The translations under genes and the position numbers were made by a program. Positions 30,506-34,500 of a stretch of DNA of 36,283 nt are shown here, in pieces. The stretch comes from a virus (Duplodnaviria; Heunggongvirae; Uroviricota; Caudoviricetes): IMG/VR virus record IMGVR_UViG_2671180456_000012. One strand, 5' to 3'. Below the pieces are notes generated by a model. The model ran no database searches and was not told the origin of the DNA. It saw only the letters and a list, made by a program, of their open reading frames with translations. Position 1 is the stretch's first letter, and every line of letters begins with the position of its first letter.

Positions 30506-31472
30506 ATGTGGTACAGGGAAGGTACTATCACATTTACACAGGGTAGCAATACTCTGGTTGGGGCAGGGACAGCCTGGAACGTAACAGCTAATGGTGTGTT
30601 GCCGGGGATGATCGTCATTGGCCCCGACAATAAGCTGTATGAGATCAAGCGCGTAATAAGCGATACGAATATTGTTCTCTCAGAACCTTATACCGGCGAA
30701 ACTCAGTCTGAGGTTCCGTGCCGAATCATTACGACCTATGAAGGCGACTTAACACAGTTTAGCGCGCGCTTTACAGCACTAATGTCGCGTATGTCGGCTG
30801 ATTCCAAGTCTATGCGCAGTTGGTTGACTGCTCTGGATGAGGTGACAATCGAGCGTGAAGACGGTACAGAAGTAACCGTTAAGCCGCTAATGCAGATCGT
30901 CAACGAGCACAACGAAAACGTTGAGTGGTATAAAAATAACACTGACGCGATTGATGCTGCTGGCGACAAAGCTCGTGAGGCGGCGGCCAGTGCTGCCGCA
31001 GCAGCAGAAAGCGCCAATACCGCTGGAGAAAAAGCCTCTCAAGCGTCTCAAAGTGCATCCGCTGCGGCATCCTCACAAAGTGCCGCAAGTGCGAGTGCAA
31101 CTGCTGCGAAAAAATCTGAAACGAATGCCGCAGCGTCACAACAATCAGCAGCCACTTCTGCATCCACCGCGACCACGAAAGCGTCAGAAGCTGCCACCTC
31201 AGCCCGGGATGCGGCGGCCTCAAAAGAGGCAGCGAAATCATCAGAAACGAACGCATCCTTGAGCGCCAGTAGCGCAGCTTCCTCGGCAACGGCGGCAGCA
31301 AATTCCGCGAAGGCGGCAAAAACGTCCGAGACGAACGCTAAGTCTTCTGAGACGGCAGCGGGACAGAGCGCCTCAGCTGCGGCAGGCTCAAAAACAGCGG
31401 CTGCGTCGTCTGCCAGTGCCGCGTCAACAAGTGCCGGGCAGGCCTCAGCCAGTGCCACCGCCGCCGGAAAAT
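30506..31472 (+). CDS. Tail fibre protein, N-terminal domain plus collagen-like Ala/Ser repeats; truncated by assembly gap
   Basis: AAGGAG SD then ATG at 30506. Unique N-terminal domain (MWYREGTITF...) followed from about 31118 by the same repeat sequence found in the downstream stf-like gene. The track ORF reads through the N run at 31473-31493. Confidence 0.6.
31118..31472 (+). repeat. Ala/Ser-rich tail-fibre repeat, copy A (near-identical to 32167-32521)
   Basis: About 355 bp essentially identical to copy B (one mismatch seen by eye); ends exactly at an N run. Confidence 0.8.
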
Positions 31473-31493
31473 NNNNNNNNNNNNNNNNNNNNN
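31473..31493. other. Assembly gap (21 N) at a repeat boundary
   Basis: Seen directly. Confidence 0.9.
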
Positions 31494-31508
31494 CACAGTG
31501 TTATGACA

Positions 31509-31534
31509 GCCCGCCGGTTCAGGCGGGCTTTTTT
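31509..31534 (+). terminator. Rho-independent terminator-like hairpin immediately upstream of stf
   Basis: GCCCGCC-ggttca-GGCGGGC followed by TTTTTT; 12 nt before the stf ATG. Confidence 0.65.
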
Positions 31535-31545
31535 GTGGGGTGAAT

Positions 31546-34500
31546 ATGGCAGTAAAGATTTCAGGTGTACTGAAAGACGGCACAGGAAAACCGGTACAGA
31601 ACTGCACAATCCAGCTGAAAGCAAAACGTAACAGCACCACGGTGGTGGTGAACACGCTGGCCTCAGAAAATCCGGATGAAGCCGGGCGTTACAGCATGGA
31701 CGTTGAGTACGGTCAGTACAGCGTTATTCTGTTGGTGGAAGGATTCCCGCCGTCACATGCCGGGACCATCACCGTGTATGAAGATTCCCGACCCGGTACG
31801 CTGAATGATTTTCTCGGTGCCATGACGGAGGATGATGCCCGTCCGGAGGCACTGCGCCGTTTTGAGCTGATGGTGGAAGAGGTGGCGCGTAACGCGTCCG
31901 CGGTGGCACAGAACACGGCAGCCGCGAAGAAATCAGCCAGCGATGCCAGCACATCAGCCCGTGAGGCGGCAACCCATGCGACTGATGCTGCAGATTCAGC
32001 ACGTGCAGCCAGCACGTCAGCCGGACAGGCCGCTTCGTCGGCTCAGTCAGCGTCTTCCAGCGCAGGAACGGCATCAACAAAGGCCACTGAAGCCTCAAAA
32101 AGTGCTGCCGCTGCAGAGTCCTCAAAAAGCGCGGCGGCTACCAGTGCCGGTGCGGCGAAAACGTTAGAAACGAATGCGGCAGCGTCACAACAATCAGCAG
32201 CCACTTCTGCATCCACCGCGACCACGAAAGCGTCAGAAGCTGCCACCTCAGCCCGGGATGCGGCGGCCTCAAAAGAGGCAGCGAAATCATCAGAAACGAA
32301 CGCATCCTTGAGCGCCAGTAGCGCAGCTTCCTCGGCAACGGCGGCAGCAAATTCCGCGAAGGCGGCAAAAACGTCCGAGACGAACGCTAAGTCTTCTGAG
32401 ACGGCAGCGGGACAGAGCGCCTCAGCTGCGGCAGGCTCAAAAACAGCGGCTGCGTCGTCTGCCAGTGCCGCGTCAACAAGTGCCGGGCAGGCCTCAGCCA
32501 GTGCCACCGCCGCCGGAAAATCGGCAGAAAGNNNNNNNNNNNNNNNNNNNGAGGCGGCAAAATCATCAGAAACGAACGCATCATCAAGCGCCAGTAGCGC
32601 AGCTTCCTCGGCGACGGCGGCTGCAAATTCTGCGAAGGCGGCCAAAACGTCCGAGACGAACGCCAGGTCTTCTGAAACGGCAGCGGGACAGAGTGCCTCA
32701 GCTGCGGCAGGCTCAAAAACAGCGGCTGCGTCGTCTGCCAGCGCCGCGTCAACAAGTGCCGGGCAGGCCTCAGCCAGTGCCACCGCCGCCGGAAAATCGG
32801 CAGAAAGCGCCGCATCATCCGCTTCAACAGCCACAACGAAGGCTGGCGAAGCCACTGAGCAGGCCACGGCAGCAGCGAGGTCAGCTTCCGCAGCGAAGAC
32901 ATCCGAAACGAACGCGAAAGCGTCGGAAACCCGTGCAGAATCCTCAAAAACGGCTGCCGCATCGTCCGCCAGTTCGGCGGCGTCATCGGCATCATCGGCG
33001 TCTGCTTCAAAAGATGAGGCGACCAGACAGGCGTCAGCAGCGAAGGGCAGCGCCACGACGGCATCCACGAAGGCGACAGAGGCTGCTGGTAGTGCGACGG
33101 CAGCAGCTCAGAGCAAAAGTACGGCGGAATCTGCAGCAACGCGCGCTGAGACAGCGGCAAAACGGGCAGAGGATATTGCATCCGCCGTGGCGCTTGAGGA
33201 TGCGAGCACGACGAAAAAGGGGATAGTACAGCTCAGTAGTGCGACTAACAGCACTTCCGAGTCACTGGCGGCAACACCAAAAGCCGTTAAGGCCGCGTAT
33301 GACCTGGCTAACGGGAAATACACCGCACAGGATGCAACGACAGCACAGAAAGGGATAATCCAGCTAAGCAGCGCGACCAACAGCACGTCTGAAACGCTGG
33401 CGGCAACGCCAAAGGCAGTAAAAGCAGCCAATGACAATGCTGAGAAACGTCTGCAGAAAGATCAGAACGGTGCGGATATCCCTGGCAAAGACACCTTTAC
33501 GAAAAATATTGGTGCCTGCCGTGCCTTCGGTGGGTCAGTAAGCACAACAACAGGAAACTGGACGACTGCACAGTTTATCGAGTGGCTGGATTCTCAGGGA
33601 GCATTTAACCATCCATACTGGATGTGCAAGGGTTCCTGGTCTTATGGCAATAATAAAATCATTACTGATACTGGCTGCGGTAATATTCATCTCGCCGGAG
33701 CTGTCATTGAAGTAATGGGGATAAAGTCAGCGATGACGATCCGCATTACCACTCCGACCACATCCAGCGGTGGCGGAACAACCAACGCCCAGTTTACCTA
33801 TATTAATCACGGAACAGATTATTCACCTGGCTGGCGAAGGGACTATAACTCCAGAAATAAGCCAACGGCATCAGAGATCGGGGCGCTACCGTCAGGTGGA
33901 ACAGCAGTATCATCAGTTAATCTGGCTTCAAAAGGTCGGGTAGCCGCGCTGACAGACAATACGCAGGGGGCAGCAGGTCTTGAGTTATACGAGGTGTATA
34001 ACAACGGATATCCAACAGCGTATGGAAATATCATTCACCTGAAAGGGATGACAGCCGTTGGCGAAGGTGAGTTACTCATCGGCTGGAGTGGTACAAGCGG
34101 TGCTCATGCTCCGGCATTTATTCGTTCACGACGGGATACGACCGACGCAAACTGGTCGCCGTGGGCGCAGCTTTACACCTCGGCTCATCCTCCTGCAGAG
34201 TTTTATCCAGTCGGTGCACCAATCCCGTGGCCATCAGATACCGTTCCGTCTGGTTATGCCCTGATGCAGGGGCAGACTTTTGACAAATCTGCTTACCCGA
34301 AACTTGCAGCCGCTTATCCGTCAGGCGTGATCCCTGATATGCGTGGCTGGACGATTAAGGGCAAGCCCGCCAGTGGTCGTGCCGTATTGTCTCAGGAACA
34401 GGATGGCATTAAATCGCACACCCACAGCGCCAGCGCATCCAGTACGGATTTGGGGACGAAAACCACATCGTCGTTTGATTACGGCACTAAATCCACGAAT

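Follow-up and report, generated by a model that had tools for sequence, protein, structure and literature searches.

The window analysed here, a stretch of 36,283 nucleotides (IMG/VR record IMGVR_UViG_2671180456_000012), presents two tail-fibre genes side by side. We conclude, with a probability of about 0.93, that this locus is a chimeric short-read scaffold in which the fibre gene of a phage-plasmid has been wrongly joined to a chromosomal lambda-like stf gene through sequence that the two share. This reading is based on comparison with other genomes, from which the adjacent fibre-gene arrangement is judged not to be a real feature. The strain that was sequenced probably belongs to Shigella sonnei or is very closely related to it.

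The initial annotation had offered two explanations: two adjacent fibre genes that exchange modules by recombination, or a repeat array that the assembler had collapsed or mis-joined. The first is contradicted by the comparison with related fibre loci that the annotation had itself proposed. Among the gap-free plasmids and chromosomes compared (L001-L007, L010-L030), none has the genes side by side, which supports the concern about an artefact; an SSU5-like phage-plasmid carries one gene, and a chromosomal lambdoid prophage the other. The second explanation holds in part. A mis-join fits our results, as a false join of two replicons together with a spurious 276-nt expansion inside stf, and a collapsed repeat array does not.

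The phage-plasmid side of the scaffold

Window positions 244-31472 are collinear with SSU5-like phage-plasmids of about 108 kb and are 98.2-99.2% identical to WEM25 p1, a phage-plasmid of E. coli WEM25. Identity to this plasmid rises to 100% over positions 30400-31472. Homology to every plasmid compared ends exactly at 31472, directly in front of the first N run.

The final intact plasmid gene ahead of the artefact encodes the tail-tip protein J (25685-30412, on the plus strand, as are all genes and modules described here; 1575 amino acids; Pfam FNIII-A_GpJ, Phage-tail_3 and Phage_Tail_Tip). The exact J protein was found on 10 gap-free contigs of about 88-380 kb, 7 of which measure 104-110 kb, and all of the contigs encoding it have one long fibre open reading frame 94 nt after J. 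The window fibre gene, which begins at 30506, shares this spacing and the N-terminus MWYREGTITFTQ with the long tail fibre of SSU5/pHCM2-like elements (CYRAN_21 of Escherichia phage Cyrano; WEM25 p1). In 13 gap-free relatives (the 10 contigs with the identical J protein, WEM25 p1, pEC16-2 and phage Cyrano), the fibre open reading frame is uninterrupted and encodes 1341-1725 amino acids.

The window carries the first 967 nt (322 codons) of this SSU5-like long tail-fibre gene (30506-31472), cut by a scaffold gap. WEM25 p1 and pEC16-2 match these 967 nt at 100%. Identity to the E. coli plasmids NZ_CP061531.1 and NZ_CP074122.1 is 100% up to exactly 31472. A full-length SSU5-like fibre is a single open reading frame of about 1350-1700 amino acids with C-terminal domains. 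The window has only the first 322 of 1341-1725 codons, lacks the Gp34_trimer/Peptidase_S74 C-terminal part, and continues with chromosomal sequence in place of the rest; it thus holds a fragment of the fibre gene and not the whole. Judged by its relatives, the real plasmid gene should extend to roughly 1350-1700 codons, with a 3′ part that the window does not contain; the listed stop codon (31541-31543) is not where the gene begun at 30506 really ends.

Other expected neighbours are also missing. The window has no Gp38-like adhesin, a protein that 8 of the 10 J-protein contigs encode and that L025, L030 and phage Cyrano lack. It is also without the downstream cluster annotated in Cyrano as holin, endolysin and spanins. 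A Pfam search with the N-terminal 322 amino acids of the plasmid fibre returned no family.

The 10 J-protein contigs contain no stf N-terminal sequence and have the repeat unit in single copy, and repeat-finding in WEM25 p1 and Cyrano detected no tandem copy of the unit. One size-matched PLSDB match considered as a possible SSU5-like plasmid bearing an stf N-terminus, pSM107_MCR (111 kb), proved to be an IncI2 plasmid that carries a whole lambdoid prophage with J-lom-stf-tfa.

The chromosomal stf locus and the inserted segment

Positions 31494-36283 are chromosomal and comprise a lom terminator, stf, tfa and the edge of an IS1 element. Positions 31494-32262 are identical at 769/769 nt to the chromosomal contig UGZB01000001.1 (locus L013, 4.96 Mb), as are positions 32551-36283 at 3733/3733 nt. 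The latter segment is also 99.9% identical to CP019689.1, the chromosome of Shigella sonnei 75/02 (PMC5447701).

The chromosomal sequence opens with the lom-stf intergenic region of a lambdoid prophage (31494-31545). By comparison with L003 and L013, this region starts 12 nt past the stop codon of lom, and it includes a terminator hairpin (31508-31529) with a terminator-like stem and a T run. The genuine 5′ part of stf follows (31546-32262; Pfam phage_tail_N, residues 1-134). Its genuine remainder (32551-34905; Phage_fiber_2 and Collar) has a real, single 257-nt unit (allele 2) at 32551-32807. The tail-fibre assembly gene tfa (34905-35486; Caudo_TAP) comes next, and the window ends inside the left end of an IS1 copy (36236-36283); its last base corresponds to position 7379 of L013, and in L012 and L014-L016 insA starts 8 nt further on (7387). 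Domain searches matched Stf to PF08400 (1.6e-71), PF03406 and PF07484, and Tfa to PF02413. The exact Tfa protein follows a 1027-amino-acid stf call in 8 of the 10 places listed (six on Mb-scale chromosomal records); the other two are L014, with a 1041-amino-acid stf call, and L020, without a listed stf call.

The order J-lom-stf-tfa is found in every gap-free relative examined (L003-L007, L011-L020). The window departs from this lambda-type arrangement because of the false join: stf is preceded by the plasmid fibre fragment and Ns rather than by lom, and the scaffold lacks the prophage's own lom and J.

Between the two genuine parts of stf lies a 269-nt piece of the plasmid fibre allele (32263-32531), which appears to have been wrongly appended to the stf 5′ contig as a spurious first ‘tandem’ unit. 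This piece matches the plasmid allele at 269/269 nt and has 16 mismatches to the chromosome UGZB01000001.1; compared with WEM25 p1, there are 0 mismatches over 32275-32531 and 1 in 365 nt over 32167-32531. Together with the 19-N scaffold gap that follows (32532-32550), it stands in for no more than 12 real bases (TCGGCTTCAAAA). By chance, these 19 Ns preserve the reading frame.

Taking out the suspect segment restored a known intact sequence. We removed 32256-32531 (276 nt) and filled the 19 Ns with chromosomal bases; the resulting gene (31546-32255, GGATGCGTCGGCTTCAAAA, 32551-34905) is 3084 nt long and identical to the stf of UGZB01000001.1 at 3084/3084 nt. The corrected gene (31546-34905) is a standard lambda-type Stf, with phage_tail_N, Phage_fiber_2 and Collar followed by a Caudo_TAP tfa, and does not differ from the gene of Shigella-type chromosomes. 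Compared with lambda-type Stf, the printed gene has a spurious 92-codon insertion that includes the 19 Ns. On this evidence, the real chromosomal stf would be unlinked to the plasmid gene, 3084 nt long (1027 amino acids), and equipped with a single unit.

Our first allele comparison (L003 and L004, then SE11 and ST70) was confounded by polymorphism in this region. SE11 carries a plasmid-like allele, and the chromosomal stf allele of E. coli SE11 and ST70 is about 98% like the plasmid allele (6 differences in 365 nt). Alleles were therefore assigned only after a look-up of the exact Tfa protein had yielded chromosomes identical to the window.

Shared shaft module, gaps and assembly path

The initial annotation had described a near-identical repeat of about 355 bp in both fibre genes, followed in the second by a diverged tandem copy, and both observations are borne out. 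In a pairwise comparison, the copies at 31118-31472 and 32167-32521 are identical at 354/355 nt. The sole mismatch (31129/32178) is a plasmid-versus-chromosome SNP, and each copy is correct for its own side. A third copy, comprising the final 257 nt of the repeat, lies at 32551-32807, with 95% identity and a start-to-start spacing of 276. The copy at 31118-31472 is the plasmid copy (allele 1) of a shared Ala/Ser-rich shaft module and is correctly placed, inside the stretch identical to WEM25 p1. The N runs do lie where they had been reported, at the repeat boundaries, but the repeats ‘end’ there only because the sequence stops: the second copy continues to match the plasmid allele for 10 nt beyond 32521, up to 32531, and the natural homology is 949 nt long. 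Tandem Repeats Finder returned no repeat in 27500-33500, because the Ns break up the array.

The shaft module shared by the phage-plasmid fibre and the lambdoid stf spans these 949 nt without gaps at 93% identity. The two longest runs of identity between plasmid and chromosome measure 84 nt (32179-32262) and 116 nt (32467-32582). The switch between alleles lies within the former, and the latter contains both contig ends. A module of about 950 bp at 93% identity, with such perfect patches, thus accounts for the confusion of the assembler.

This module, common to two unlinked fibre genes, is the biologically real part of the locus and represents ordinary fibre mosaicism. Mosaic tail-fibre genes swap shaft modules between unrelated phages, as seen in comparisons of lambda, P2, P1, Mu and T-even fibres. 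The segment found here is of the same kind, with perfectly identical patches. Its sharing is a population-level property of two unlinked genes rather than recombination between adjacent genes at one locus, and it fits established mosaicism without implying a new mechanism.

The fibre locus contains N runs at 31473-31493 (21 Ns) and 32532-32550 (19 Ns). Three further runs occur elsewhere in the window (301; 1133-1143; 25496-25497), so Ns are general to the scaffold and not special to the fibre locus. The run at 1133-1143 sits between duplicated copies of TCGAAGGTG, where the complete plasmid has a 9-nt overlap and no additional bases; these Ns are thus inserted filler and not masked sequence, and N-run lengths in this scaffold are demonstrably unreliable. 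The N at 301 sits between duplicated copies of AGTGGG, and window bases 1-30 recur at 271-300.

We propose that the host carries two separate elements: an extrachromosomal SSU5-like phage-plasmid, with the single long fibre gene that starts at 30506, and a chromosomal lambdoid prophage with J-lom-stf-tfa next to IS1. The assembler, which may have been of the de Bruijn type with k around 31, could not phase across the 84- and 116-nt identical runs. At 31472, within the longer of these, the plasmid contig breaks off. The contig with the 5′ part of stf passes the 84-nt run, takes the plasmid allele (32263-32531) and likewise ends in the 116-nt run; the true chromosomal continuation (32551 onward) stayed behind as a separate contig. 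Runs of 21 and 19 Ns join the three contigs, which read pairs mapping into the shared module could have led the scaffolder to link.

The locus has the traits of repeat-induced chimeric short-read contigs: Ns at the joins, synteny breaks at the Ns, and sides that are each 100% identical to a different replicon. Further likenesses are path switches in the longest identical runs, a scaffold end in IS1, and other N runs that cover true overlaps. Its only oddity compared with this class is a shared repeat located in two distinct fibre genes instead of an IS element or rRNA operon.

Alternative readings and consequences for annotation

Other readings would keep more of the printed structure. It is very unlikely that only the plasmid-stf join is artefactual and that stf truly bears a tandem duplication or gene-conversion tract, with the plasmid unit 32263-32531 recombined in ahead of the native unit. 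Recombination, homologous or unequal, could draw on the perfectly matching 84- and 116-nt runs, plasmid-like chromosomal stf alleles exist (SE11, ST70), gene conversion is biologically possible, and the frame stays open across the 19-N gap, although N-run lengths in the scaffold cannot be relied on. However, the flanks of the insert are base-for-base those of a chromosome with a single unit. The best 40 matches to 32167-33050 among complete E. coli genomes all span 608 nt (884 minus 276) with a single unit, and none of these 40 reaches 99% identity. Two degenerate patterns for the tandem junction gave 0 matches in the 2.9 million viral contigs of IMG/VR, and repeat-finding in the SE11 stf yielded no tandem copy of the unit. 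Moreover, the supposed junction is exactly the part that the Ns hide, and the copy and the plasmid contig stop at the same place within the 116-nt stretch of identity. A still less probable variant is that stf in the strain, or in a subpopulation of the culture, gained the 269 nt by recombination at the 84- and 116-nt runs with the fibre gene of the phage-plasmid in the same cells, and that the assembler captured a genuine mixed or duplicated state. If true, this would be a directly observed transfer of a module from a phage-plasmid to an integrated prophage within one cell.

We give even less credence to the whole arrangement being real, through recombination or cointegration of the phage-plasmid with the chromosomal prophage that left a truncated plasmid fibre directly upstream of lom terminator, stf and tfa. 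One scaffold does present these sequences as contiguous, and gene exchange between phage-plasmids and prophages occurs. Homologous recombination in the shared module would nevertheless give a hybrid gene, not a truncated gene followed by the lom terminator and an intact 5′ end of stf. The breakpoint also coincides exactly with the 21-N gap (31473-31493), where the Ns bridge the join and coincide with a complete synteny break: plasmid synteny stops at 31472 and chromosomal synteny starts at 31494. In 5,426 complete E. coli genomes, no top-ranked match continues past the plasmid-stf join; the junction occurs in 0 of the 13 gap-free plasmid relatives and in 0 of the chromosomes carrying the identical tfa. 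A pattern for the junction had a sole match among viral and genome contigs, another N-containing draft contig, and returned nothing from GTDB species genomes. The match, in an unrelated draft, is an analogous artefact, an N-bridged concatenation of stf 5′ contigs. The least probable reading, close to negligible, takes the N runs as masks placed by the provider over real, correctly assembled bases, so that the structure is as shown. Some public collections do mask short stretches with N, but the Ns at 1133-1143 are flanked by duplicated 9-mers at a point where nothing additional is present in the complete plasmid, and both N runs at the fibre locus coincide with synteny breaks.

Recognising a chimeric scaffold here is of practical value for annotation and for the cleaning of data. 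Read as printed, the scaffold yields a wrong, truncated ‘fibre gene’ of 345 amino acids and a wrong, over-long stf of 1121 amino acids containing Xs. It also yields a false expansion of a tandem repeat, a phage-plasmid that falsely carries lambda stf-tfa and IS1, and a false linkage of an SSU5-like phage-plasmid to chromosomal DNA.

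Two fibre genes from two replicons

The near-identical repeat of about 355 bp that the initial annotation described in both fibre ORFs is present in the window. Positions 31118-31472 and 32167-32521 are identical at 354 of 355 bases, with the sole difference at 31129/32178, and the last 257 nt of the repeat recur at 32551-32807 (95% identity, start-to-start spacing 276). N runs also lie where they were reported, at 31473-31493 (21 N) and 32532-32550 (19 N); three more occur at 301, 1133-1143 and 25496-25497. Plus-strand ORFs listed at the locus are a 345-aa ORF (30506-31543) that reads through the 21-N run, an stf-like ORF (31540/31546-34905) that reads through the 19-N run, and tfa (34905-35486). 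We consider this structure an assembly artefact, with a probability of about 0.93, and recognize no new feature at the locus. The two fibre genes are real and unlinked, one on an SSU5-like phage-plasmid and one in a chromosomal lambdoid prophage, and the claim that they are adjacent therefore falls. Both carry an Ala/Ser-rich shaft module some 950 bp long, an instance of ordinary tail-fibre mosaicism.

The best megablast matches to 30400-31560 among 5,426 complete E. coli genomes are ~106-112-kb plasmids (99-100% identical), and all break off at query base 1073 (window 31472). Within the phage collection, the top matches to the left side are Escherichia phage Cyrano and, at greater distance, Salmonella phage SSU5. 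The E. coli WEM25 plasmid p1 (L001) runs collinear with window 244-31472; its genes there are those for terminase, portal, capsid, tape measure, homologues of L, K and I, and J, along with ParB-type partition genes. This layout is that of an SSU5/pHCM2-type phage-plasmid. The ORF starting MWYREGTITFTQ is open without a break for 1640 codons in WEM25 p1, 1685 in phage-plasmid pEC16-2 (L002) and 1341 in Cyrano. Looking up the exact window J protein gave ten gap-free contigs; their sizes range from about 88 to 380 kb, with seven at 104-110 kb. Each of the ten loses collinearity with the window at 31472, continues the fibre ORF (1357-1725 codons), has a single copy of the 257-nt unit and lacks any match to the stf N-terminal region. 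In eight, the fibre ORF is followed by a Gp38-like adhesin gene, and small genes further downstream are those annotated as holin, endolysin and spanins in Cyrano. Since gap-free relatives have a fibre ORF of 1341-1725 codons and collinearity ends at 31472, the window's first fibre gene is just the first 322 codons of a far longer gene, and its apparent stop sits in foreign sequence past the gap.

In RefSeq, the long fibre gene (L001 8107-13029, L002 8107-13164) is annotated in pieces, as a short CDS plus an antisense 'hypothetical protein', a pseudogene or both; the ORF from MWYREGT nevertheless stays open for the full 1640 and 1685 codons. Long spurious antisense ORFs arise from the Ala/Ser-rich stretch in these genes, and a 341-aa antisense ORF on the window minus strand (32043-33068) is of the same kind.

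Window 31494-36283 matches chromosomal lambdoid prophages with gene order J-lom-stf-tfa. Base 31494 lies 12 nt past the lom stop codon, and the lom-side terminator hairpin is at 31508-31529. The stf product has phage_tail_N, Phage_fiber_2 and Collar domains, and tfa encodes Caudo_TAP (Pfam). Many Mb-scale chromosomal records encode the exact Tfa protein, including the Shigella sonnei 75/02 chromosome (CP019689.1; PMC5447701). Of the ten places listed, eight have a 1027-aa stf call ahead of it; the stf call is 1041 aa long in record L014, and none is listed in L020. The window closes with 48 nt (36236-36283) from the end of an IS1 copy, and in matching chromosomes IS1 insA begins 8 nt beyond the window-end equivalent. 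Contigs typically end in this way at multicopy elements, and the position suggests that the window is the whole scaffold. The sole PLSDB case of an SSU5-sized plasmid carrying the stf N-terminus proved to be an IncI2 plasmid that harbours a complete lambdoid prophage (J-lom-stf-tfa).

A single shaft unit and the rival readings

Compared with the 4.96-Mb chromosomal contig UGZB01000001.1 (L013), window 32551-36283 is identical at 3733/3733 positions and 31494-32262 at 769/769. The intervening 32263-32531 has 16 mismatches to L013 and fits the plasmid allele (0 mismatches in 257 nt, 1 in 108 nt). Placed on the chromosome, the segment 31494-32531 and the one starting at 32551 share 257 nt, and thus the chromosome carries one unit, not two. 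Deleting 32256-32531 and replacing the 19 N by chromosomal GGATGCGTCGGCTTCAAAA yields a 3084-nt gene that is base-for-base the L013 stf. Comparison with related fibre loci thus gives a single long plasmid fibre ORF and a chromosomal stf with one unit. The mis-join raised by the initial annotation holds, with synteny breaking at 31472/31494; its other suggestion, a collapsed array, does not: stf as printed carries a spurious expansion of 276 nt.

A real conversion or duplication within stf would account for the plasmid-type unit preceding the chromosomal-type one, and we regard it as improbable. The 40 best complete-genome matches to 32167-33050 each span 608 nt (884 minus 276), and none of the complete-genome records searched reaches the >=99% identity expected of such a tandem. 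The tandem copy is absent from Cyrano, WEM25 p1 and the SE11 stf, and two degenerate patterns for its junction gave 0 matches in 2.9 million viral contigs. A real cointegrate, which would place both fibre genes on one molecule, is less probable still. The plasmid-to-stf junction pattern has no match in GTDB species genomes and one in IMG/VR, in IMGVR_UViG_2671180490_000011 (L008), itself a draft. The first stf 5' contig of L008 (from the lom end) ends at the same CGGCAGAAAG; its second stf copy equals the window over 31494-32262 and then runs directly into the chromosomal-type unit, and is therefore independent evidence of the single-unit structure. L008 is the same kind of artefact in an unrelated draft. 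Genuine but masked sequence under the Ns is the least probable reading. In L008 itself, the arrangement near base 1348 (minus strand) is one stf 5' contig followed by a different one, with a single N between them.

A probable route to the artefact

On the artefact reading, it was the shared ~950-bp shaft module that misled the assembler. Alignment of the plasmid fibre (L001) with chromosomal stf (L013) is gapless for 949 nt; across those 949 nt, L001 and the E. coli SE11 stf are 93% identical. The two longest stretches of perfect L001/L013 identity cover 116 nt (32467-32582) and 84 nt (32179-32262), in coordinates of window piece B. The 31129/32178 difference is a plasmid/chromosome SNP, right on each side, so the stf 5' contig tracks the chromosome through 32178 and then swaps to the plasmid allele within the 84-nt run. 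The plasmid contig end at 31472 (equivalent 32521) and the stf 5' contig end at 32531 both fall within the 116-nt run, the break pattern to be expected when short reads or k-mers are unable to phase two paralogous sequences. Which assembler was used, and why the contigs were linked into a scaffold, are our inferences.

Other gaps and variable segments

The 11-N run at 1133-1143 has the same 9-mer, TCGAAGGTG, on both flanks. In the complete WEM25 phage-plasmid the corresponding sequences share those 9 nt, with no bases in between, and thus the Ns cover a true overlap. The single N at 301 has AGTGGG duplicated on both flanks, and both runs are scaffolder filler. As bases 1-30 (ATTAAGCTCCTTAAAAGCGCCCATAGTGGG) recur at 271-300, the stretch 1-301 resembles a short loop contig from a de Bruijn graph, with k near 31; nothing in WEM25 p1 matches bases 1-243. 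Window 6510-6768 holds about 257 nt vs only about 28 nt in WEM25 p1, and is an indel or variable segment of the phage-plasmid backbone.

The exact window J protein is common (154 blocks of the collection). Within J (25685-30412, 1575 aa), the part encoded by window 28000-30000 contains a long insert built from degenerate helical repeats (…DISAAI..EQEAR.SAD.AL..QI.QLQSKV…), which lies between the Phage-tail_3 / fn3 and C-terminal Phage_Tail_Tip domains; Tandem Repeats Finder did not detect these repeats at the DNA level.
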